Part shown: one piece after another, positions 11,532 to 62,000 of the stretch | Numbering within the stretch: position 1 is the first letter of the stretch | Layout: every line of letters starts with the position of its first letter | Assembly (NCBI GenBank): GCA_003971905.1 | Contig: RSEE01000075.1 | Location: 62,001 to 126,000, forward strand | Direction: 5' to 3' | Source of the DNA: Moniliella sp. 'wahieum' | Taxonomy: Eukaryota | Length of the DNA stretch: 64,000 nt | Position numbers and translations under genes: made by a program | Notes under the pieces: model-generated | What the model was told of the DNA's origin: nothing | Databases searched by the model: none | The model's input: the letters and a program-made list of their open reading frames with translations, nothing else

Positions 11532-14500
11532 AGAGAAACATACCTCAGTGGGCCAAAAGTAGGAAGCGAATTTCCACAAGTGAAGTTCATGTCGCTCTTT
11601 GGCCGCGGCCGAGTCAAGAGCGTAGATGGTTTGAAGCACGTGGTCAATACGTTGGCCAACCGCCGACAGACACTCTTTGAGGACGGCGACTTTTTCTTCT
11701 CGTGCCAAGTGGTCGGTTCCTTGACGCAGCCGTTTGAGCTCTTTGCGACACGGACGCATCAGTTCCTTGCACTCGGCTTCATCCATGCTCTCTTCGTCCG
11801 ACGAGTCTGAGTAGTCCACCGTGACGCGCTTTTTGGCTGGCGCGGGCGCCGGGTAGGAAGAAGAGGCATGGTTCTGCCCATTGGCATGGGACCGGCCATT
11901 GGACGTAGCCACGTCGGGCGTTTGGCTCCCAGTCCGTTTCAGCTTCAAATTTTGCTCGTACTCTTCTGGCACGGCGTTCATCGCCTTGACGTGCTCGTCA
12001 TGGTCGCGAAGCACCTTGAGCAAATAGTCAGCACGGCGCATCAAATGCACTCCACTTGGCATGGGGCGCGAAGAACGTCCTCCAGCAACAGGGGCATCTT
12101 TGATATCTTTGGCATCTTGTTCGGGCGAAGGCTCCTTCTTCCCTCTACTCTCTGTCGTTTTCTTGCTTGCCCCTTTCTCCTTCTCTTTCTCGTCGAGGAA
12201 AAATTTGCCTGCAAACTCAAGGTCCGGGTCTTGCTCCATTTGATCCCACGCGCCCACGCCATACCGATAACACCCCAGCAGAAGATGGGCATCGTCCTTC
12301 GCGTCCCACGGCACGGACCAACTCATGGTCGTCTTGAGGGACCGGACCGGGATGCGCCAGCGCACCTGTTCCAACTGCGTCAACGGCGCCAACGTTTCGG
12401 TCAAGAGCGAAGACCGTTGAAGCGCAGTTCCGTTGTCTCGGCATTGATTTTGTCCACCCCACGAAACTTGACCAGCACAGCCTTTTGACGCAACTTGGAC
12501 ACGTCTTCCCCTTTTCCATCATGGCCGACATCAACGCACTGTGCTCCTGCACGGCCGCCGTGCAGATACTCATCAGTTCCCGCACGGCGTGCATCACCAC
12601 CGCACGATTCTTGCCCTGCAGACGAGCCTCCTCGATCATCTCATCGTACCGGGCCTCGGGATCGCCCCACTTGTGCAATCCACGCAGCAGAGTGCGCAGG
12701 TCCCGGTCTTTCAGCTCCATTGACTTTTCCGCTGCGGTTTTCATCTTGCGCCGGGGCGCCGCTGGACCTGCCGCTCCTTTCTTGCCCGATGCGCCGTCCA
12801 GGTCAGGCGAAGCCGAAAGTGAATCGCGGTGTCGTCTTGCCGCTGCTGCCGCTTGGGCCTTGGATTGTTCCCCTGCCTTTTCGGCCGCCTTGCGACGGCT
12901 GGGGAGCGACTCTTGCGCTGCCTCCTCCACCGCGCGTTGACGTTCTTCTTCCTCGGCTCTGCGCCGGTCCTCGAGGGGAATAATATCTTCCCACTTGACG
13001 TCCGTTTTGAAGTCCGACACCTGAGCAAACTGCTTCATGAACGCTTCGCCTCCGGACGACGCACCGCCACCAGGTCCTTCCGTGTCGATGGCATCGGCGT
13101 GTTTCAGAATATCGTCCAAGTCCATATCGTCCAACTTCTTTTGCTGGCCCGAGTCGTCTTCTTTGAACAAACTTTGTGCGCCAAACTTGAGAATCTCACC
13201 CAACTCTTCCTTGGACGGTTGCTGGGCCCGAGCCTGTGCCGCCGCCTGCGTCGACGAGGCAAAGGTACTGCCAGACGTGTCCATCTGATTGATGATGGCA
13301 TACTCGAGCACAATCTTACGCTTCGCCCGCTCAATCACATCTTCCTCCACTGTATCCTTGGTCAAAAAGCGAAAGACCGATACGTGGAACTTGGAATTGA
13401 GTCGGTGGGCGCGCGCCATGGCCTGCAAGTCGTTCTGCGGGTTCCAGTCCGAGTCAAAGATGATCACCGTGTCGGCGGTGGCAAGGTTGATGCCCAACCC
13501 GCCCGCGCGAGTCGAGAGCAAAAATGCAAAGTCGGGTGAATCAGGAGCGTTGAAATGGTCAATCGCCCTTCGTCGCTGGTCGGACGAGACGGTGCCATCG
13601 AGACGTTGGAAAATGTAGCCCCGAAGCCGCATATAGTCGCTAATAATGTCGAGCATGCGCACCATTTGAGAAAAGATGAGAACACGGTGCCCATCCGCCT
13701 TGAGACGAGCAAGTAGTTTGTCCAGCAACACCATCTTGCCTGAGTGCATGATCAGTCCTTTGAGCTGCTCCTCCCGCCCGACAGCAGCAGGCTCAGCGCC
13801 TTCAAATAGAAACGGGTGGTTCGCCGCCTTTTTCAACTCCATCGCAATGTTCAGCAGGGAAAACTGCGCACTGCTGTCTTTGCTCAAGATGGAAAAGTTG
13901 CGCGACAGAATCGCCTTGTACATCCGCCGCTGCATCCCTGACATCTCGACCCGCAGAATCTTCTCCGTCTTGCCGGGTAACTCCTTGATCACATCCTTCT
14001 TCAGCCGGCGAAGCATCACGTTGCCCAACTTGTCATGCAGCTCGGCGACCCGGGCTTGGTCCACCGTATCAATGTCAAAGTCTGTCTCGAGCGGGAACTC
14101 GTCGGGACGGAGGAAATGAAGGAGGGCAAGGAGCTCCTTGACGTTGTTTTGTAAGGGTGTGCCTGTGATAAGCAACTTGTTGGCCGTATGGAACGTCCCC
14201 AGCGCTTCGTACAACTGCGAGTCGGAGTTTTTCAGCCGATGCGCCTCGTCCACAGCAAGGTACTGCGCCATTTGATATGTCCCAACTCGGCCCGGTCCTT
14301 GAGCACAAACTCGTACGTCGTCACTAGCACATTGAACTTGATCTTCTTGCCCTGGCCAAACTCGTATTGGCGCATAATTTCGCGCGACGCAGTGTTGCCC
14401 ATGTAGGCAATCACGTTCAGATCGGGCGCCCACTGCTCAAACTGCTGCACCCAGGCCGGCAAGGTGGACAATGGGACGACGACCAAAAAGGGACCATACT

Positions 14501-19200: not shown

Positions 19201-20102
19201 CCTGCGGCGTGGCATACACCGAAGGCCGAGGCGAGTAAATCGAACCGACAATCGTCTGCCGGTTGGAGTTGGACGCGTTCGAGAAGGTAGAAGCAGTGCG
19301 CGAATGCGATTGGGACTGGGACTGGGACTGGGACTGGGACTGGGACTGGGACTGGGACTGCAACTGGGCAGGACTCGGCGGCGGCAACACGCCTACACCA
19401 AATGGGTAGGGGGGGCTGACCGTCGCAGAAGACGAGGCTGGAGAGCCCACGGCGCTTGTGCCAGGCTGGAGATCCAGGTCCAGGTCCAGGTCCAGGTCCA
19501 GGTCCACTTGCGCCTCCGCCAACCCACCGCCCCGAGGGAAGCGAAACCGGTTGGGAAACAAGTGGAGGAACAGGTGGAGGAACCGGTGGAGGAACAGGTT
19601 GGAAAGCCAAGGGCGGGGGGCGAACTGGGTGGGGGTAGTGGGGCGACTGGGCCCGAGTGGGCTGGGGATACTCGCGATCACGACGAATATCCGCATTGGG
19701 ATCGGGAGGGCCAGGCGCGGGTCGGAGCCGGTCATCGGCCTCGGGCACGCGGGCACGGGCCGCGTCCGACCCCGAAGCCGACCCCGACGCCGAAGCGGAA
19801 GCGGAAGCTGAGGCCGAAGCCGATGCGGAAGCGCACGTGGAAGCAAGGGAGGACGTGTCGGAGGAAAGGGCTAGATCGGGCGGGGGAGCAAGGAAAAAGC
19901 GACCTTGACGTTTGGCCTGGGGGTGGACGTGGACGGTCGCGCGGGTCGGGGGGGACGAGGGTGGTGGAGGCCACCGACACGGACGAAGGCGAGGGCGAGG
20001 GCGAGGGCGGGGCGGGGGAAAGAGCAGGACGGGACGAGGTAGTGGAGCCAGCTGGGAACGAGCACCGGGACCTAGGAGAGGCCGAGGGCGACTGTTCCCC
20101 CT

Positions 20103-21494
20103 TGTTGACTGTGATCCTCTGGCTCCCAGTCGGTAGACCAGGTTCGCCTCGGTTCCATCGGCTTCCACGCTGACGTCCCTGCGTGTCACTGTCCCTGTGC
20201 CCTGCACTCTCTCCTGTGTGACTCACTGTCCCTGTGCCTAGTCCAGCCTCCTATATAGATGCCTCTGTACCCAGACCCAACTCTGGCTCCAATCCATCAC
20301 CTTCTCCTCATCCTTCTGCCCGTCCGGCTCCCTAGGCCAACAGAGCTACAATCTGATCCCCCCGGAAGGGGAGCGCTCTTCAAGCAAGCCCACCCCCAAG
20401 CCTACAAGCCCAAGCTAAGCCGCCAAGCCCACAAGACACACCGTCCTCCCGCCCAACAACACCACCGCCACAATCGGCACCTTACCGCCACAATCGGCAT
20501 ACTACCGCCACAATCGGCATACTACCGCCACAATCGGCACACTCGTCCCCCACAGATGGGGCAATGATTTTTAGGGACAACACACGACGGAACAAAACGT
20601 GTCGGGTATCGTCAACGAGACGAAATTCCTCCAACGACAAAACGGCGCAGGCGAATCGCAGAAAGCGGGGGTGGCTGCTCATCAAGTGCCCCACCCACGG
20701 CTACACGCCCCGGATTGCCAATTCATCCGGGGCACCTGGGAAAGGATGGGGGGGGTGGTCACCCAACTTCTTCCACTCCTCTTTTTCAACAACAAAGAGA
20801 ACCCAAACAGATCAAGACGGTTGACGCATAGCGCCCGTTCATTTCCCATGCCCAATGGACCCCACTGGCACCAGGCATGCGGAACCAAACAACTACCAAA
20901 CGCATCCAATTTGATGCCAAACGACCTTGGACCGCATTTACTCCAAGTTTCCAATTTTCTTTCACTACACCTATAACTGGTGCTTTTTACTTTTGCCCAC
21001 CAAATCGCTTCGGGGCGCAACCCTACTACTTTTACTTCTAAGACTTCTACAAGCATCTGGCGGTCGCACAATACACCAACCACAAGCGCTCGGCTCGTTC
21101 AGGTGTCATCCTGGACAGCGGGGGTGTAGGCCAGTCGTGTGGCCATGCACAACTCCAGGCCATTCGTCCCGGTTGCCACTCAAGTCCTCCCCTCTCTACA
21201 TCCACTGGCAGGAGCTCATCCCACAACCGATGTCTCCGGGTTCCCTGGCCAGCGGGGGTGTTGACTGTGATCCTCTGGCTCCCAGTCGGTAGACCAGGTT
21301 CGCCTCGGTTCCATCGGCTTCCACGCTGACGTCCCTGCGTGTCACTGTCCCTGTGCCCTGCACTCTCTCCTGTGTGACTCACTGTCCCTGTGCCTAGTCC
21401 AGCCTCCTATATAGATGCCTCTGTACCCAGACCCAACTCTGGCTCCAATCCATCACCTTCTCCTCATCTGCCCGTCCGGCTCCCTAGGCCAACA
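20103..21494 (+). mobile_element. Non-autonomous LTR retrotransposon (TRIM-like), 1392 bp; LTRs 20103-20342 (240 bp) and 21259-21494 (236 bp); 5-bp TSD CCCCT
   Basis: Two direct repeats TGTTG...CAACA differing by one 4-bp indel; CCCCT at 20098-20102 and 21495-21499; PPT CAGCGGGGG before the 3' LTR; 916-bp interior with no recognisable retroelement protein motif. Confidence 0.93.
20461..20540 (+). repeat. 4 x 20-bp tandem repeat (ACTACCGCCACAATCGGCAY) in the TRIM leader
   Basis: Directly visible; CCGCCACAATCGGCA core identical in all four copies. Confidence 0.9.
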
Positions 21495-22201
21495 CCCCTC
21501 TTGGTCCCAGTCTTCGTCGGCTTCGCCGTCGGCCGGAACCTCGGACCAGGTGCCACCCTGGGGCACGATGACTGGATACGAGGCATGTGGCTGCCGGAAA
21601 TGTGCTGGACACGCAGCTCCGACGGCACGTCCGCCTCCTCGCCCATGGCGGGGGAGGTGGGCGCGGGCATAAAGTACACGGAGGGGATGGGCTGGCGGCG
21701 GCTGCGGCGGTGGCTCCGGGCGGCGGGGCATGCAGACGCGGGGTGGGGCGCGATACGCTGCGCCAGCGGCGCACATGCGCATGGGGGAGGGCGGTGCGGG
21801 GCTGGCGAGGAGGGAGAGCAGGCCGCCTGCGCGGGCCGAGGCGGCGTGGAGGAGGCGTGCATGCGGCGCAGCCTCTGCCGGGGAGGTGGAGGTGGAGGTG
21901 GAGGTGGAGATGGAGGTGGTGGTGGTGGTGGTGGTGGTGGTGGTGGTGGGATGGAGGTGGAGGTGAGGATGGTGTTGGAGGTGGAGGTGGGATGGTGTTG
22001 GAGGTGGAGGTGGTGGTGGGGATGGTGTTGGTGGTGGTGGTGGCCATCGGGCAATCACCTGGAGGTGACTACTTGCTGGTTCCTGCTTGGCCCGCGTGAA
22101 ATTGCAGCAGCAGGCACACTGCCCCGCTGCGTGCTGCGCGTGCTGCGCGTGCTGGGTTGGGCTCAGTGTGCGCTGCGATCGGCTTACACGTCTTCTACGG
22201 C

Positions 22202-48650: not shown

Positions 48651-50543
48651 CCACGTCGCGTCGCGCCAGAGGCCCAGGGAAGTACCGATGCGCAGTAGCT
48701 CCCGCGATAAAGGCTAGAGATAAAGGTGATCGTGCCAAAATACGCGCTTGTGTATTTAGAGCACAGTCGTCTCGCTTGGCAACACATCGCGAGCCGGATG
48801 GTGAAGTGGGATTCGCGTTAATCCATCTACCCCAACTTGCGAGTGGAGGTCATCTGAGACATCACGCATAGTCAACGTGGGAACGGTGAAAATATATTAT
48901 TTTCCCACTCCAGCGTGGAACGGTGGCTAAGGGGGCGACGCACAGCAATAGTTAATCTCATCAGTGGCAGGCCCAGTTCGGCGAGCTCTCGCCGCATATA
49001 CTTTTTGGTAACCACAACTGGATGATGTTGATGACGGCAATGAACGGGTTCGTAAAGGGCGCGAACATATTGCTAGCAATCGGACCGTGGTGACGTCTTA
49101 TTGTTTCCGACAGATCCTCAATACACAGAGTCGGAGACTGCAAAAAGGAGTGCGTCTTATTGTGAGGCATCAGACTTGTGTGTGCGCGCCGAGTTGATCG
49201 CCACTCTGGCTTGGATCCGGACTGAGGATCCGCTGTCGCTTCGGGTTCGGTAGACGGACCAGCCGACTGTGGGCAACGCACGTTTCAGCGTTGTCCTCCA
49301 TCCAAAAGCATCTTCCACATCGCCATTTTGCGTGGGAGACCCAGGGGGCAATCCAGAGAGGGGCTGACGGTGCAATTCAGGGGAGGCCACGTCTGGCATA
49401 TTAATGTCAGATGTGTGCCACAGTAGAGATGGTGGCCAGCGCTTGCCGGTTGGAACCAGCTAGGATCGTGCTTACGCGCCGGAGCGCAGGGTGCACGAAT
49501 GATGCCTGCTGCAGTGTCCAGTGTTGCAGCTGGGTTATTGGACGCGACCCGGTGTGCCCGGTGTGATCTTGCTGGTGACGTCGGGCGTCCCTGTGTCGAA
49601 AAGACGAGTACGGGTATCGACGACATATCCGGTGCATATCCAATGGCTGGCAGTGCTGGGCATTCTGGCAGCCGAAAGAGTTGAAGCAAGAGTTGGAGGA
49701 GCTAGGGCTCCAGTGTCCAGTACCTCGGTGTCGATACATTGCCGGTGTACCAACGGCGAACGTTTGAATGTGCGACTCGACTTTCACTGTTGGCCTGGCT
49801 GCTTCGATCTGTCCAGGACACTACGTAGCCTTATTCGCTCACCATCGAGCGACAGTTGGCTACTGCCGGTCACGGGCGAAGACGAGCTGGCAAGCCTGAC
49901 GAAGCCTATGTGCGCCTGTCGCCTTCCTATTCCCATCCCCAGGTTGGTCATGGGGTCAGATTCAATCTGGAGACGATAGTCGCCCCGTGCCCTTTTACCT
50001 TTTAGGTTGCCCGTACCCAAAACCGTCGCCCTCCCTGGTTTCCCCTCTGTCCCCCGTTCTTCCTCTATGCTACACCGCCTTGCCACACTGGCACCCACCT
50101 CTGCTATACGCCGAGAAGTCTTTCTTTGTCCCTAGCCCCGCTCGGACCCACCAATCAGCCCAAGTGCGTAACCACCGTGAGAGCTAGTCGACCTTAGGAT
50201 CTCCAATGGATTGTACCCTTAGGCCTTAGGCCTTAACCCCCCTGGGCGCCCCCCCCTGGCAGCGCCCGCGCGTACACTGCCTGGTGCAGAGAATGTTGGG
50301 CGCAGCCTGTTCCCTGCAGCAACAGCGCCTTAATACTTCTTCAGTTAGGCCCCTGGCTAGCCAAATCCGGCCAGGGGCAAAAGACTTGCCTAATGCATTG
50401 TATGGAGCCCCCCGCATGTGAGTGGCGCAATCTGCTCTACCCCCACACTGCAGCCCACACTTGACAAGAGCCAGCCAGACCCCCTGGTCATGCCTCTTTC
50501 CACATACACCCTGTTGACATCCGTCCTAGGACCGCGCGGACCC

Positions 50544-50559
50544 TGAGTCACGTGAGTCA
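50544..50559. promoter_or_regulatory. Tandem AP-1/Gcn4 sites TGAGTCA-cg-TGAGTCA overlapping a CACGTG E-box in the copia LTR (also 55442-55457)
   Basis: Exact motifs seen; binding is inference. Confidence 0.5.
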
Positions 50560-50725
50560 GCTTTCATTCCTTCCGAGCTCGCACCAGTCTTCTGGACGAG
50601 TCAGTCGCAGAAGCTTCTTAGTCCAATACGACGTTCAGTGCTCACATTCTGTGGTAGTAGCGAGGCCGACAGAGTTACATCCTTATCTGCTCATCCCTGA
50701 GCTGGCCAAAACTACACCCACAACC

Positions 50726-51973
50726 ATGGGCGCCAACGCTAACACCGATCTCTCGGTCAGCGACACCACAATGGTGAACAAGCGCGATTACTGGACACCA
50801 ACCGGTCGCGATCCGCCACCGATTGGCACCGACAACGAGGAACTCATGATGCTTTGCGCCGAAGCGCACCTGTGGTTCAAGAAGACGAACGACATCGATG
50901 TCGTTAAAGAGAAGATCAACAGAGCTATACACGACAGAGCCGAGTGGCTTGGATGGAAGGACGAACCTACGTCTATCACGACAAACTGGGTTCGACGGGC
51001 TACGAATTTTGTGGTGCAAAACATCCACCAAATGGAAACTCAACCCAACGCAACTTTGGGGGCACCTACAGGCGCAGCCTCGCGACCCGAGTACGACCTT
51101 TACAGATCACTACGCGAGTCTCCCACCAAGAATATCAAGTGGCCTGATCTGAACAAAGACCCGTCCGCCTACAGCGCTTGGGAAGACGAATTTCTCTTCG
51201 CGATAACAGATGCCCACCCCCACGCAAGCGACGTCGTCCAGAATGGTCGCAGCTCCCGCTACTTCACCGAGGACCTCGACAGACGCTTGCACAACCTTCT
51301 TAGGGAAGCCATGCCGTCAACCCTCTTCCGGACGATCCGCACCCACCACGAAATATCATGCACCCAGGACACGCTGAACATGCTGCGTCAGCGGTATGGA
51401 TATACGCCTACCGCAAACAGAGGGCCTCTACTCATTCGCTACTTTTCGGCCGACCAAGGAAACCGATCGGGTCGAGACTACCTCGACTACATGGAAGAGA
51501 TCAGTGCAAGCCTGACGCGAGCGGGCATCCCACTTACGGAAGAGCAGGAACGCACTGGGATCCTACTCGGCTTACGCGACATGAGCATTCGCCAGCGTGA
51601 AGAGCGCTCGAGTCTAGACAAGTTACGGCAGGCCGTGATGGACATACCAGCCGCCACGTATCCCGGTGGAGAAAGGAAGAGAAACGGAGGCAAGCCGGTC
51701 AACGGAGGAACGCCTTGGACTCGACCCGACAGCGGGGGACGACCCACCAGCGGGGGAAAAAACTCCAGCGGGGGCAAAGCCGGCGACGACAACCTCGCGG
51801 ACACAAAGACCAAGGGGCAAGACCGCACCAACCAACCCTGGCGCAGCGCGACGTCTAATAAACCTGTTGTCCCTCCGCGCAACCCAGGCCGAGCCAACGC
51901 TCACGTCGCTCAGAGAGCGAGCTCTCCCGAGTCTGAAGTGATTGACGTTGATGCGGGCACAGCTGACTACTAG
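50726..51973 (+). CDS. gag: Copia Gag (no CCHC zinc knuckle visible), ends at UAG in frame with pol
   Basis: First ATG after the LTR at 50726; helical capsid-like region (YSAWEDEF...LNMLRQRYG...DYLDYMEEI) followed by a basic Gly-rich tail. Confidence 0.85.
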   Translation: MGANANTDLSVSDTTMVNKRDYWTPTGRDPPPIGTDNEELMMLCAEAHLWFKKTNDIDVVKEKINRAIHDRAEWLGWKDEPTSITTNWVRRATNFVVQNIHQMETQPNATLGAPTGAASRPEYDLYRSLRESPTKNIKWPDLNKDPSAYSAWEDEFLFAITDAHPHASDVVQNGRSSRYFTEDLDRRLHNLLREAMPSTLFRTIRTHHEISCTQDTLNMLRQRYGYTPTANRGPLLIRYFSADQGNRSGRDYLDYMEEISASLTRAGIPLTEEQERTGILLGLRDMSIRQREERSSLDKLRQAVMDIPAATYPGGERKRNGGKPVNGGTPWTRPDSGGRPTSGGKNSSGGKAGDDNLADTKTKGQDRTNQPWRSATSNKPVVPPRNPGRANAHVAQRASSPESEVIDVDAGTADY

Positions 51974-53611
51974 GAACTCGGGGGCGAAATGCGAATCATC
52001 CGGGCATTATATGACAGTGGGGCATTCCCATCCATTTGGAAAGACAAATCCGTCTTCACATCCATGACCCCTTGCGACGACGAGATAGAGGTTGCTAACG
52101 GGACACATGTAAAGGCGGAAGGACGAGGCACGGCCACAATCCGTATCCGATGCTTAGGAGGACACCAAATGGAGATAAAACTCCCCAACAGCCTATACAT
52201 GCCCCGTTTCAGCCGAAATCTCGTCAGTGTAGCACACCTGTCGAACACCGGAATCGCATCATACTTCGCCCCACACCAGAAGGGTATCTGGCTTGGTAAC
52301 CCAGGATCCACCCTACGAAAAGTAACCGGCAGTGACTATCAATTCACGATCTTACACAACCCGCGAACGCCACCCACACCCCTGCGGGCCATGGCGACCA
52401 AACCGATCAAACCGGCCGACCCACCCTCAACCCCAAACTCCCTCGCAGCATCCCTGGCCCTGGACCACGTCTCTAAAGCCCACAAACGCTGGAACCACGC
52501 AGCCATCGACCTCCTCCCCTGGCTTACACGATCGGAAACCGCAGGCCTCCGCGTCACAGCCAAGCATATCTCCCTCTGTCGTTCAGAGTGGGATTGCCCA
52601 ACATGCGCGGTGGCACTAGCGACAGCATCGCCCCATCCGAGCCGGGACCGCCTCCGATCCAAAAGACCTTTCGAGGTCCTCCACGTCGACGTAGTAGACC
52701 TCCCCCGGGTAACCGGCATGGGGCACGGATACGCCCTCGTCGCCGTTGATGACTTCACGCGGTACGTCTTCACCACAGCGATCCCGACAAAGGGCGCTGC
52801 AACGAAGGAACTGCGGAACCTCATATTGCGGGAGCAACGCTACGGCCCGGACAGACTGCTGCGGACTTTGCGCACGGACAACGCCCCCGAATTGACAAGC
52901 GCACTGCAACCTTTTCTGGACGAGCAAGGCATCACGTCAGAACGGACAATCCCGGGGCAGAGTGCTAGCAACGGTGTGGCTGAGCGTGCCATCCGAACCA
53001 TAACGACTCGTGCAAGGCAGTTGCTCTTGGGTACAGGTCTTCCGACGTCGGACTGGTGGGAACACAGCCTCCACGCTGCGTGCTTCACCCAAAACCAAAT
53101 GCCACTCAAAACATCCGGGGAAGACAACAAATCGCGATTTGAGCGATACAAAGGCCACGCATACTCGTTACCGATGCAACCCTTTGGCCGCGTTGCATAC
53201 CTCCATCTGCCCGAGTCACGCCGCGAGCACAAGCTCAGCGCGCGGGCAGAGGAAGGTATGCTGGTAGGATACCACCATCAGCGCGGATCAAAGGGATGGC
53301 TCTTCGCCACATACCAACCATCCCTGGGTACCTTCACCTACCGCTGGTCGAAACCGTACAAATGGGGCAACGCCATCTACCCCCATCTCCACCCCGACCA
53401 CTTCCCACCCGACATCTCCAAATCACCTCAAATTAAAATCGACAGTGAAAAAGACGCTAACCCTACTCCGCCAGCCGCGGCAGCACCCATGCCCCGAACC
53501 GCCGCCACACCCCAGACACCCGCTCCCACCACCACCCCCCCTCCGCGCCGCTACCCCCTCCGCCAGCGCACCACCCGCACCTCCCTCGACCTGCACACTC
53601 CCAATCGCTGA
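51974..53611 (+). CDS. pol: Copia Pol part 1: aspartic protease and integrase
   Basis: LYDSGA protease; H(KRWN)H...C(PT)C zinc motif; LHVDV, RTDNAPE, SNGVAERAIRT DDE core; KLSARA. Confidence 0.93.
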   Translation, partial: ELGGEMRIIRALYDSGAFPSIWKDKSVFTSMTPCDDEIEVANGTHVKAEGRGTATIRIRCLGGHQMEIKLPNSLYMPRFSRNLVSVAHLSNTGIASYFAPHQKGIWLGNPGSTLRKVTGSDYQFTILHNPRTPPTPLRAMATKPIKPADPPSTPNSLAASLALDHVSKAHKRWNHAAIDLLPWLTRSETAGLRVTAKHISLCRSEWDCPTCAVALATASPHPSRDRLRSKRPFEVLHVDVVDLPRVTGMGHGYALVAVDDFTRYVFTTAIPTKGAATKELRNLILREQRYGPDRLLRTLRTDNAPELTSALQPFLDEQGITSERTIPGQSASNGVAERAIRTITTRARQLLLGTGLPTSDWWEHSLHAACFTQNQMPLKTSGEDNKSRFERYKGHAYSLPMQPFGRVAYLHLPESRREHKLSARAEEGMLVGYHHQRGSKGWLFATYQPSLGTFTYRWSKPYKWGNAIYPHLHPDHFPPDISKSPQIKIDSEKDANPTPPAAAAPMPRTAATPQTPAPTTTPPPRRYPLRQRTTRTSLDLHTPNR

Positions 53612-55415
53612 CGACCCCACCGACACGACCTACCATGCTCGTGCTGCAGCCGCCACGCCCCACTGCGCCGCACCAGAGATCGGCATCGCCCGCCCCCTAC
53701 CTGACACATCCGCCCCCCCGTTTGCCGACACAGTTCAACCTCCCGAATACGCCGCCATGACTGCTCTCAGCGCACCCATCCACCCGGACACGGTTCAGCT
53801 CACCAAGGATGGCGTACCCCTCGCTCCCAAGACGCTCAAGGGTCTCGAGACTCACCCCTCCTTTGCCATGGTCAAGCAGGCTATGGCCGACGAGGTGGCC
53901 ACACTCGCGCGATACGGCACCTACGAGGCTACGTACCCACCACCGGGTGCACAAATCCTCATAGGACTATGGCGCATCACCACAAAGACGGACGCCGAGG
54001 GCCGGTTCCTGCGCCACCGCGCGCGCTTTGTCGCGGGCGGACACCAACAATCGGCCGAGACTTGGGGCCAGACGTTCGCACCATCGGTGCGCACACCTGC
54101 CATCCTGACCCTCGTCGTGCTGGCCGAGAAGTATAAGTTTGGCCTCTTCTCGGCGGACGTCAATGCAGCGTACCTGAACGCCCCCCTCGAAGAAGCAGTC
54201 TACATCCGCCCACCCCCCTACTTCCCCGAAGCGGGTGGTCGCGTGTGGCGTCTCAAGAAGAGTCTATACGGGCTACATCAGAGCGGAGCAAACTGGGCAC
54301 GATACATCCGGAACCTGCTGCGTGACAAGCTCGGCTTCACGCAAAGCTTGACCGAGCCCTGCTTGTTCGTGCGCGCTGCACCACCGGGTGAGCAGATCCT
54401 CCTGGCGGTCCACACCGACGATCTGCTCCTCGCATGCAAGTCACACCAAAAGTACGAGGAGTTTATGGCCGAGATAAACACACACATTGATGTTCGTGGT
54501 AACGGTCCCCTTCACTACCACCTGGGATGCCAATACGATCGGATCGGTGGGGAGCTGTACCTGAGCCAACCAAAGTTCATCGAGGAAGTGGTGGCAAAGC
54601 ACCACATCAAAGCCCCGTGGATCCGGACTCTCCCACATCCCGTACGGATGATACCGCCCCGTGCCGACCCTGAACCCCCATCCCTCCCAGCCTTGCGCAA
54701 GGCATATCAGGGGAAGATCGGATCGGGACTGTGGGCTGCACGAATGGGCCGGCCTGACTCCCTCTTCGCTATCACGGCCCTCAGCAGAGCCGCTGCCGAC
54801 CCATCGCAGCAGCATCATCAAGCAGTCGATGACTTCCTTCGCTACCTGTACCATACTCGAGGAAAGGGCCTGAGGTTGACCCCAACATCAGATGCACCGG
54901 CCATTGCGCTGTATACAGATTCCGACTTGGCGGGAGATCCCATCCAGGCACGCTCCACATCTGGATGCCTACTGATGGTGTACGGTGTGCCGGTGTCGTG
55001 GCGATCCATTCTTCAGCCGAAGAGCGTTACCAGTACCGCCGCCGCCGAATATACGGCAGGATATGATGGACTGGTTGACGCCAACTATGTCAAGAACATC
55101 ATGATCGAGCTTGGGGCCATCGGCGAGGGTACACCCATTCATTGGTATTGCGACAATAAGTCTGTCGTCGATCTCGCCCACAAATTTGGCAGCACCGGCA
55201 AGCTCCGAGAGCTGAAGATCCGGTACCACAATGTACGGCAACACGTGGACTCGGGCGAGGCCATACTTGTACACATCCCCGGCGAAAGGAACCCAGCGGA
55301 CGTCCTCACCAAGCCTCTCGGCCGTCCCGCCCTGACAAGCCATCTTGCTCAACTCCGCGTCGAGGAGATGGATCCAGTCCACATGACTGGGCCCTCCGGT
55401 CAGCGGGGGTGTTGA
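53590..55415 (+). CDS. pol: Copia Pol part 2: reverse transcriptase and RNase H (+1 relative to part 1); ends GQRGC* inside the 3' LTR; 5' junction approximate
   Basis: HRARFVAGG, ADVNAAYLNA, LKKSLYGLHQSG, HTDD catalytic motif, YTDSDLAG, AAEY, CDNKS, NPADVLTK. Confidence 0.93.
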
Positions 55416-57149
55416 CATCCGTCCTAGGACCGCGCGGACCCTGAGTCACGTGAGTCAGCTTTCATTCCTTCCGAGCTCGCACCAGTCTTCTGGACGAGTC
55501 AGTCGCAGAAGCTTCTTAGTCCAATACGACGTTCAGTGCTCACATTCTGTGGTAGTAGCGAGGCCGACACACCCCACCACCATCCCTCGCCACCGTTCCA
55601 CCAGAGTAAGTGCAACAGCCCGTCCAGGCAAAATGCTCGTGCGAGCCCCTCTCGCGGACCCAGCAATATCGCCGGTCCAGCTCACACCCGCACCGTCAAC
55701 AATAAGCAGTTTTGCTCGCACCATCTCGGCTCCAACGCAACCCGTAACACTGTGGTTGCATCGGTCGTGCCTGACATGACGCTGCGTCGGTAAAAGAGGA
55801 GTTGTACTACTCTTGGCTCCACCTCTTGGGTGCGCCTACAGCTGTATCGTTTGACAACGGGGCATCTTTGTGTTCGTAAGATATGTGGCGCTGGCTTTTC
55901 CACTTTTTGAGATATCATGCAGCCTTCGCTTCTTAGGTTAAGGTGGGAAGCGTACACCATCCGGTTTTTTTTGTGCACTACTAGTATGTGTAGGCACCAA
56001 ATAGGGTTTTGCGCGGTTGTGCCGCTAAAGAATTTGTTCCTCATCCTCTAGATCTGGCGTATGCCCCTCAAGGTAGTTGTGTGCGCCAGAGTCGCATCCC
56101 AATTGTTAGAAGGGGTTAGCTACGCCTCAAAACTATCCTCTCATCGGTGATCAGCTGTATCCAATGGGCAAATCGCCTGATGAGCGGCTGACTGTGTGTG
56201 GAAATTGTGGATATGATCCTGTATGATCATGTCTGCATCTCAAGTCCACTTCCTTTCAACCCAAAGTTTGGAATTTGGTTATCTGCTGGGCGGTTATCTC
56301 ATCCCTACCAAACAGTAATAGTCACTTTTCCCCTGGCACACACCACGATCTCCAATCCCAAGGTGTGAGTTCCACACTTACAGAGGCTGGCATTAATTAA
56401 CCACTTCTCTGTCGGTTTTGGGGATTAAACGTTTTGATGCTTTGTCAGTCCTCTCCCACTGACGAATGGCATGCCTATTGACGTCTTGCGAAACGGTGGT
56501 AGCTTCGCCAGCCACACGCGCCATGACAACTTCGGGTATGATATCTCCTGTGTAACCTTGCAAAAATGCACGTTTGCCCGGGTGTCTACGCCCCAATCTC
56601 CGGGCTCCTTTGTTCCCGCCCAGAGTTTTGTAGCTCCTATACACAGGGATAATAATAATCACTAATTGTAAAAGATTAAGAGAGGCAGTCGGTGCAGCCA
56701 AAAGTGGGATTTTGTTAGTAGGTCCTGAGCCGGATGTCAATGTGATGATGTTCTGTTGACCCGATGTGGCAACCACTGCCGAGATGTGCATCACTGGTGC
56801 AGAAAAAATACGATATTGCGTCATGTCAACAGCAGAATCTTTAACGCGCTCGACGGAAACATTTGGTCGACATATGACGATAAACAGCCTGGATGGAAGA
56901 GAACCATTACCACCCGGTTCTAGTGGACATATGGTCATAGCAGAAGAACTGATCTCATAAGTCATGCTTCACCTGGGAGAGTGTGAACTCGGACGACGCG
57001 GACAATGTGAGTCATCCAACCAAAGTAGTATTTCCAAAAGTCCTGGAACAGTCGACTTTCACTTAAGACTGATGGCGCATACTAATGTATTCATGTGGAT
57101 TCTGTCAAGAGTGACACTCACCAATCGCTTTGTAAGAGGTCCGGACACA

Positions 57150-61229: not shown

Positions 61230-62000
61230 CTTTAGTGTTTTCCCAGAATCAGCGCCGTAGCATTCATCTATTTGCCGGTATCCGCTTGGAGATATCCATA
61301 GTGAGAAGGCACAGCCCGGGGAAATAGTGAGGAAAGAGAGGCTCGAATGGAATCGAACCCATGGCATCGCCGATTGGTCAGTGACGCGTTCCACTACGCC
61401 ATCGAGCTGCGATAGGAGCAGCTGTAGGATCACAGAGTCTCCGCTGCGAAAGCACAAACCAAAAGGGTAGAAGGCGAAGAAGGCAGACATCTCCTCCACT
61501 ATTACTATAGCTTGCATGCTGGCTACTAGTATATCAACGCCACTGGCGTTCCAGTGCTCGACTATATACCCAACAGAGAGAGTTTTGTCTTCGTCGCTGG
61601 TGGTTCATACACCTGCTTCACAGTTGATGCGGCATTACTATTCAGACTCTTCATCCTCGTTGGTAGCGTCCAAACAGATGCGTGGGACGGGCGAATGGTC
61701 CGCGTAATGGGCCTACGCCGTCTCGCGCCCTCTTGGCGGTATGCTGAAGGAGCAGCATCCACAGCAGCCCGGTGGCGTTGAGCTATCACTTGGGCCAGTG
61801 TGCCGGCTTCGCTGTGCTCTGTTCTCGCTTGTCCCAGGCGCAAATCGAGGTTTCCGTGGCCCTTTGGAGAGGTTTTCAATGCGTACTCCACCAGGACATG
61901 CTTGAGATGCGCAACGTGCCGAATAGTACCGGTTTAAGCCAAGATTTGGTTGATGCCGATGGCTTTTGAAGGTAACATATCCTGTCAGGCAATGCATGCA
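61230..62000 (-). mobile_element. Degenerate Ty3/gypsy RNase H-integrase remnant
   Basis: HWNASGVDILV...AIVIVEEMSAFFAFYP and QLDGVVERVT resemble the gypsy integrase core (W..I.MDF..VVD..SK; QTDGQTERVN). Confidence 0.45.

Follow-up and report, generated by a model that had tools for sequence, protein, structure and literature searches.

Publications on retrotransposon priming, in the passages searched, distinguish three types of primer. The first is a tRNA left whole, the second a tRNA half produced by cutting within the anticodon stem or loop, and the third a self-primer (PMC6317226, PMC8515867, PMC5371799, PMC4139406). Half tRNAs are characteristic of the hemivirus-type Ty1/copia elements, among them Drosophila copia, Ty5, the plant elements Osser, Bryco and Bianca, families from C. 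albicans, and FunCo1. Their primer-binding site (PBS) does not begin with TGG, adjoins the LTR and pairs with a part of the tRNA other than its 3' terminus, and the primer is a 5' tRNA fragment. The iMet half-tRNA primers of copia and Ty5 are about 40 nt long and end at position 40, the cut being made in the anticodon stem. A cut in the anticodon stem or loop is common to all cases described in the relevant parts of three papers (PMC6317226, PMC5371799, PMC8515867).

In Tf1 and Tf2 of S. pombe, which are Ty3/gypsy elements, the primer RNA is the element's own transcript and acts in cis. RNase H cuts the Tf1 transcript where its duplex with the PBS ends, and the first 11 nt, thus released from the 5' end, prime the LTR element (PMC7175516, in the portion consulted). 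Fungal GalEa elements from Pezizomycotina are copia elements without a classical PBS, in which a short conserved motif of 9 bp follows the 5' LTR directly; the motif forms a palindrome with the final A of the LTR, and a complementary partner lies 12-41 bp downstream, so that a conserved hairpin (Conserved Hairpin Site, CHS) lies beside the LTR (Donnart et al., 2017; PMC5445492, in the portion consulted). Priming by tRNA nucleotides 1-13, or by a fragment cut at the D loop, was not described in the parts of the literature searched, where the Cryptococcus elements Tcn2-5 are a possible basidiomycete precedent: according to a review excerpt (PMC7175516), Goodwin and Poulter (2001) invoked 'novel mechanisms of priming' for them. 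Short 5' tRNA fragments (tRFs) of the relevant size are known, and the most abundant tRFs of S. cerevisiae are 13-nt 5' fragments of tRNA-Phe and tRNA-Met, of the tRF-5a class, which are cut between nucleotides 13 and 14 and end in ...AGCUC (PMC9149858, Table 4). No role of such fragments in priming reverse transcription was found in the literature searched.

The 64-kb window, by which we mean the whole stretch of DNA that was analysed, contains two LTR elements, a Ty1/copia element of 5,058 bp and a non-coding TRIM of 1,392 bp (20103-21494). Their features are collected in Table 1. The larger element belongs to Ty1/copia by its domain order (protease-integrase-RT-RNase H), by an RT of the RVT_2 type (Pfam, E 2.1e-37 in 53757-55412, with Pol_BBD, rve and SH3_retrovirus in 51989-53608), and by two LTRs with TG..CA ends inside a 5-bp TSD. 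The smaller one has the attributes of the TRIM class, being short, with LTRs, a TSD, a PBS and a PPT, and devoid of coding capacity; the single long ORF that overlaps it has no Pfam match. In its interior a 20-nt unit (CCGCCACAATCGGCAYACTA-like) is repeated in tandem about four times (20461-20543). The two LTR pairs are the sole long repeats in the window, which holds no further copies of either element. Because TSDs and LTR identity define the elements, the LTR borders at the PBS are fixed independently of the PBS itself.

Table 1. Positions of the features of the copia element and the TRIM in the window.
Element	Feature	Positions	Strand	Remarks
copia	Left TSD	50507-50511	+	CACCC, read directly
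copia	5' LTR	50512-50671	+	160 nt, TGTTGAC...GGCCGACA; 100% identical to 55410-55569
copia	Candidate PBS	50672-50684	+	GAGTTACATCCTT; core GAGTTACA 50672-50679, then TCCTT
copia	Leader blocks	50685-50689; 50693-50697	+	ATCTG and ATCCC; common to TRIM
copia	gag ORF	50726-51973	+	415 aa; no Pfam match; stop TAG 51971-51973
copia	Protease-integrase ORF	51974-53611	+	Same frame as gag; Pol_BBD, rve, SH3_retrovirus
copia	RT-RNase H ORF	53445-55415	+	RVT_2; frame differs from integrase
copia	Polypurine-like tract	55401-55409	+	CAGCGGGGG; adjoins 3' LTR; block GGYCAGCGGGGGTGTTGAC common to TRIM
copia	3' LTR	55410-55569	+	160 nt; 100% identity with 5' LTR
copia	Right TSD	55570-55574	+	CACCC, read directly
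TRIM	Left TSD	20098-20102	+	CCCCT; right copy 21495-21499
TRIM	5' LTR	20103-20342	+	240 nt, TGTTGAC...GGCCAACA
TRIM	Candidate PBS	20343-20361	+	Core GAGCTACA 20343-20350, ATCTGA 20351-20356, TCCCC 20357-20361
TRIM	Polypurine-like tract	21250-21258	+	CAGCGGGGG
TRIM	3' LTR	21259-21494	+	236 nt; 98.3% identical to 5' LTR over 240 columns, one 4-nt indel

The bases that follow the two 5' LTRs form a real, conserved cis element exactly at the position of a PBS, and this element appears to be of no standard type. An earlier note on the same DNA had located both sites, and direct reading gives the same coordinates and sequences; the internal region of the TRIM opens with GAGCTACAATCTG (20343-20355). 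The copia site begins with GAGTT and the TRIM site with GAGCT. Neither begins with TGG, the start of the pseudovirus-type PBS that pairs with the ...CCA-3' end of tRNA-iMet, nor with GGTTATG, the motif for half a tRNA-iMet in hemivirus-type elements, and the note was right on both counts. A Conserved Hairpin Site of the GalEa kind is likewise absent, the sole stem at the site having 4 bp.

Conservation between the two elements is concentrated in three blocks: the LTR start TGTTGAC with the PPT block GGYCAGCGGGGG that precedes it, the U5 end, and the eight bases that open the internal region. The last two of these adjoin and together make up the 17-nt block AGGCCRACAGAGYTACA, in which 15 of 17 positions are identical between copia and TRIM; the longest contiguous run common to the two sites has only 8 bases. 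The LTRs as a whole are weakly similar (global alignment z 4.9 against shuffles), and their interiors, with 12 nt trimmed from each end, reach z 2.4. The non-autonomous TRIM has thus kept its ends, the tract in front of the 3' LTR and the bases just inside the 5' LTR, as would be expected if these served in cis for integration, for plus-strand priming and for minus-strand priming, respectively. Since the blocks kept in the TRIM are those expected of cis signals, we regard GAGYTACA as the core of a genuine PBS. This 8-mer occurs four times in the window, counting both strands, and two of the occurrences are the PBSs.

Some smaller features of the leaders can be recorded here. ATCTG is kept in both (50685-50689 in copia, 20351-20355 in the TRIM), and its order relative to TCCYY differs. 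It is complementary to CAGAU, the bases that come next after the 13-mer discussed below in the fly and Arabidopsis tRNA-Ala fragments (tRNA positions 13-17). In each element, a hexamer found near the beginning of its own LTR recurs after the PBS core, ACATCC in copia (50512-50522 versus 50672-50682) and TGATCC in the TRIM (20112-20117 versus 20354-20359); both repeats may be due to chance.

The earlier note had paired the copia site with the 5' terminus of an Ala-type tRNA, and the pairing that it described is borne out. With the 13-mer GGGGAUGUAGCUC, the copia PBS pairs at 13 of 13 positions (10 Watson-Crick, 3 G:U, no mismatch), and the T/C difference between the copia and TRIM sites falls opposite the same tRNA G, at position 10, as had been stated. 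In a contiguous reading, the TRIM site pairs at 11 of 13 positions, with 9 Watson-Crick pairs, 2 G:U pairs and 2 mismatches. Six bases past its core, however, the TRIM contains TCCCC, a perfect complement of tRNA nucleotides 1-5 that is absent from the earlier note. With this segment included, the duplex consists of 8 bp, a 6-nt bulge and 5 bp (TCCCC:GGGGA), and all 13 primer nucleotides are in Watson-Crick pairs. The fit has its imperfections, which are the 3 G:U pairs of copia, including one at a distance of four bases from the end of the primer, and the 6-nt bulge of the TRIM. According to literature excerpts, imperfect PBSs and G:U pairs may persist in the Ty1/copia superfamily.

The fit of both sites to the Ala-type 5' end is far above that of random 13-mers. 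Placed on the 24 nt after the LTR, the 13-mer gives a dG of -18.7 kcal/mol for copia and -19.2 kcal/mol for the TRIM, which rank among the best 0.27% and 0.15%, respectively, of 6,000 random 24-nt windows. Random 13-mers of tRNA-like composition equalled the fit on copia in 9 of 250,000 cases and on both elements in 0 of 250,000. Yeast tRNA-Phe and tRNA-Met yield 13-nt 5' fragments with the same ...UAGCUC end (sequences from PMC9149858), and these pair less well, at -8.5 to -13.5 kcal/mol. Only 2 of the 127,976 13-mers of the window pair with the Ala-type 13-mer at all 13 positions, and the copia PBS is among them. Since 46 of 127,986 8-mers in the window pair fully with the partner of the core, the 8-mer by itself is weak evidence. 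As the tRNA was picked after the site had been seen, we applied a post hoc correction for about 3,000 tRNA 13-mers (our own estimate), under which chance would give about 0.1 matches like that of copia alone and fewer than about 0.01 double matches. The two matches are not independent, because copia and the TRIM are related.

The 13-mer is a widespread tRNA sequence and agrees with the tRNA consensus of Rfam at all but 1 of its 13 positions. It is the 5' end of an Arabidopsis tRNA-Ala (PMC9149858, Table 4) and heads tRFs that are conserved in human, mouse and fly (PMC9149858, supplement Table S1), in the parts of that source consulted. Further occurrences are found in literature on animals, plants and trypanosomatids; the literature matches listed include no fungal paper. 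The tRNA-Ala of S. cerevisiae has a different 5' start. ARAGORN found no tRNA gene in the 64-kb window, and a search with Rfam of 81-nt stretches round both PBS sites gave no tRNA-like match. At 61339-61408 (-) there is a weak tRNA-like Rfam match (30.4 bits, gathering score 29), which ARAGORN does not call and whose 5' end is unlike the 13-mer. With its anticodon arm unpaired and positions 1 and 72 mismatched, it probably represents a tRNA gene in decay or a repeat of tRNA origin.

We hypothesize that GAGYTACA, located directly after U5, forms together with TCCYY the minus-strand PBS of a fungal Ty1/copia family and its TRIM, and that this PBS would pair with nucleotides 1-13 of a tRNA, for which the Ala type gives the best fit. 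As the best single explanation of the site, this mechanism has in our estimate a probability of about 0.45. In the tRNA, the paired stretch would run from the 5' side of the acceptor stem through U8 and A9 to the 5' side of the D stem. In this arrangement, the core would have UGUAGCUC, at tRNA positions 6-13, as its partner, and the acceptor-stem nucleotides would be bound by TCCTT directly after the core in copia and by TCCCC after the 6-nt bulge in the TRIM. Reverse transcription would start at the 3'-OH of C13, and the TRIM would rely on the same machinery as the copia family. The primer could be a pre-existing 13-nt 5' tRNA fragment that anneals to the PBS; the cut between nucleotides 13 and 14 in the yeast tRFs coincides exactly with the proposed primer end. 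Alternatively, the whole tRNA could anneal and the RNase H of the element could cut at the end of the RNA:RNA duplex. We infer from the sequence that the host has such a tRNA, that it serves as the primer, and where and how it would be cut. The ATCTG block common to both elements has no account in the 5'-end model. The claim of the earlier note, priming by a 5' tRNA fragment, therefore stands in part: the conserved site, the departure from the known PBS types (3'-CCA, iMet half, Tf1-type self-priming) and a fit to the Ala-type end much better than random are found, and the host tRNA as primer is a prediction that falls somewhat short of even odds. Its statistical footing is firmer than in the earlier note, and for primers of a suitable size the published yeast tRFs offer a source.

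The serious rival is priming by a half tRNA of the hemivirus type, in which the PBS would pair with the anticodon arm of a GUA (Tyr-like) tRNA cut in the anticodon stem after position 40. TRIM positions 20341-20355 read CAGA-GCTACAA-TCTG, and the reverse complement has the layout of an anticodon stem-loop, with a stem of 4 bp and a loop of 7 nt. This loop has a pyrimidine at position 32, U33, GUA at 34-36 and a purine at 37, with the LTR border at 40/41, and in copia as in the TRIM the bases agree with stem pairs 30-40 and 31-39. A half tRNA would also account for the conserved ATCTG, which would pair with tRNA positions 28-32, and the T/C difference would fall opposite position 37, where tRNAs carry a modified purine. 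The in-frame stop between gag and pol of the copia element points the same way, as this is reportedly also a trait of Tca2, a hemivirus of C. albicans. Half primers other than iMet have been published, according to the excerpts consulted, with Ile in plants (PMC6317226), Arg(UCU) in C. albicans (PMC4139406) and an internal region of tRNA-Lys in the fungal FunCo1 (PMC5445492). The pairing energies, however, argue against this reading: two tRNA-Tyr anticodon arms pair poorly with both sites, at -3.8 to -7.5 kcal/mol, versus -13.6 to -19.2 kcal/mol for the Ala-type end. The PBS requires U32 and C38, and tRNA-Tyr usually has C32 and A38, a clash that would place a mismatch three bases from the primer end. 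The same CAGA/TCTG stem is present in copia (50670-50689) with a loop of 12 nt, and the copia PBS would have to hold a 5-nt insertion in its middle; the complement farther 5' is unlike a D stem. On balance we consider a half-tRNA primer unlikely. If the host does have a fitting, unusual anticodon arm, copia would be one more hemivirus-like element with a new tRNA, a modest result. A somewhat better, but still low, probability is given to a true PBS for another primer RNA, either a different tRNA region or a non-tRNA small RNA with the 3' end ...UGUARCUC, so that the Ala-type fit would be coincidental. Such a coincidence would be helped by the common UAGCUC box-A motif. The shortness of the contiguous run shared by the two elements and the choice of the tRNA after the fact speak for this reading. 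On the other hand, five extra positions fit the same tRNA in both elements, and this is what none of the random 13-mers equalled.

Two further readings would dispense with a host RNA. The site could act through the structure of the element's own RNA, either as a hairpin at the PBS position, similar to the GalEa CHS, or as a stem between U5 and the leader. The CAGA/TCTG stem can form across the LTR border in both elements, and the GalEa elements provide a fungal precedent for a conserved hairpin in place of a PBS. The stem, however, has 4 bp and a stability of -3.7 kcal/mol in copia and -3.6 kcal/mol in the TRIM (z -0.06 and -0.63), and 83 and 53 of 200 shuffles, respectively, fold as well. The loops are unequal (12 and 7 nt). 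Together with the last base of the LTR, an A, the site makes no palindrome, and direct reading reveals no 9-bp CHSeq2 partner. We rejected the hairpin as an explanation, since it is too weak and no better than in shuffled sequences, and regard action through the element's own structure in general as quite improbable. In fungal Tf1/sushi elements the transcript is known to serve as its own primer through its 5' end (PMC7175516), and self-priming was proposed for plant TAR copia elements (PMC6317226), in the parts of these sources consulted. Here, the best duplex between PBS and LTR has -6.9 kcal/mol in copia, compared with a mean of -8.46 kcal/mol for 500 shuffled LTRs (78% as good), and -7.9 kcal/mol in the TRIM, compared with -8.50 kcal/mol (500 shuffled LTRs, 67% as good). 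Ungapped complements of the PBS anywhere in the elements reach at most 11/13 in copia and at most 9/13 in the TRIM. These values agree with the earlier note, which had seen no complement of the PBS in either LTR, and as the own-LTR duplexes are no better than those with shuffled LTRs we rejected Tf1/sushi-type self-priming, which is extremely improbable.

We return to pairing with the tRNA 5' end, which relates to the described systems as follows. The two elements resemble the hemivirus-type elements in that copia belongs to Ty1/copia, the PBS does not begin with TGG and adjoins the LTR, and the predicted pairing is with a tRNA part other than the 3' end, which would make the primer a 5' tRNA fragment; they differ in that the best fit ends at nucleotide 13, on the border of D stem and D loop, and thus covers the extreme 5' end of the tRNA. 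With Tf1 and Tf2 they would share a primer of about 11-13 nt that comes from the 5' terminus of an RNA, anneals to the PBS and is cut free where the duplex ends (PMC7175516, in the portion consulted). Since the present elements are without a self-complement, the primer RNA would be a host tRNA acting in trans. The likeness to GalEa elements lies in a fungal copia element that lacks a classical PBS and has a short conserved motif directly after the 5' LTR; the present site differs in that it forms no palindrome and has a weak hairpin, and in that it comes from a basidiomycete. The supplement of the GalEa study (PMC5445492) contains no strings that match either PBS. The yeast 13-nt 5' tRFs correspond to the proposed primer in their cut (13/14) and in their 3' end, ...AGCUC (PMC9149858, in the parts consulted).

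A conserved 13-base match to a tRNA in place of the usual PBS may mark a so far undescribed start of reverse transcription. More specifically, and tentatively, we suggest a fourth priming mode with nucleotides 1-13 of a host tRNA, cut at the border of D stem and D loop, the primer being supplied as a 5' tRF or by a Tf1-like RNase H cut in trans. If true, a PBS that reads tRNA nucleotides 1-13 would add a fourth kind of minus-strand primer to the three of the reviews (PMC6317226, in the passages searched); in classification, it would be a variant form of tRNA-fragment priming rather than a category of its own. Very short 5' tRNA fragments would acquire a concrete molecular job, which would tie a poorly understood class of RNA to retrotransposon replication, and Tf1-like cutting of a short 5' primer from an RNA duplex would be found to work in trans on a host RNA. 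Fungal elements of this kind would escape PBS finders whose tests are limited to the 3' ends and the anticodon halves of tRNAs.

The copia element is young. Its gag ends with a TAG, after which protease-integrase continues in the same frame in a stop-to-stop ORF, and the in-frame TAG between gag and pol suggests stop-codon readthrough, not frameshifting, for the synthesis of Gag-Pol. The integrase part (ORF 51989-53611) and the RT-RNase H ORF are in different frames, and at about 53290-53880 the homology to a relative changes frame inside a proline-rich linker. The identity of its LTRs notwithstanding, this copy may be defective, or it may need a frameshift or a small intron. The RT is 31% identical to the best of 36 proteins (7,999 candidates scored), and the lineage is therefore poorly sampled.

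Relatives were also sought in other data. A search of viral contigs with the RT protein and an RT alignment gave no relative, and the sequencing runs listed for copia comprise one DNA run and no RNA run. In that run, from a food metagenome (X1, share 0.18), four short, near-identical contigs cover pol and the 3' LTR of copia (window positions 52329-55504) at a depth of about 2.5x, and a 5,089-nt contig with a depth of 30 represents a diverged relative of copia; none of the contigs spans the PBS. From these contigs it follows that the copia family is present in at least one other organism or strain. A metagenome scan with the PPT/LTR-start pattern shared by the two elements returned five loci, which we discarded as chance matches in GC-rich, apparently bacterial DNA; their flanks contain no LTR element, and one of them (L005) reads like a PP-loop ATPase motif (SGGVD). 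As for the host genes, 12220-14436 (-) is part of a CHD1-type chromatin remodeller (SNF2-rel_dom, Helicase_C). This gene assigns the host, a smut-like basidiomycete, to the Ustilaginomycotina in the neighbourhood of Tilletiaria, its sequence being 75% identical to that of Tilletiaria anomala and 89% identical to another protein.
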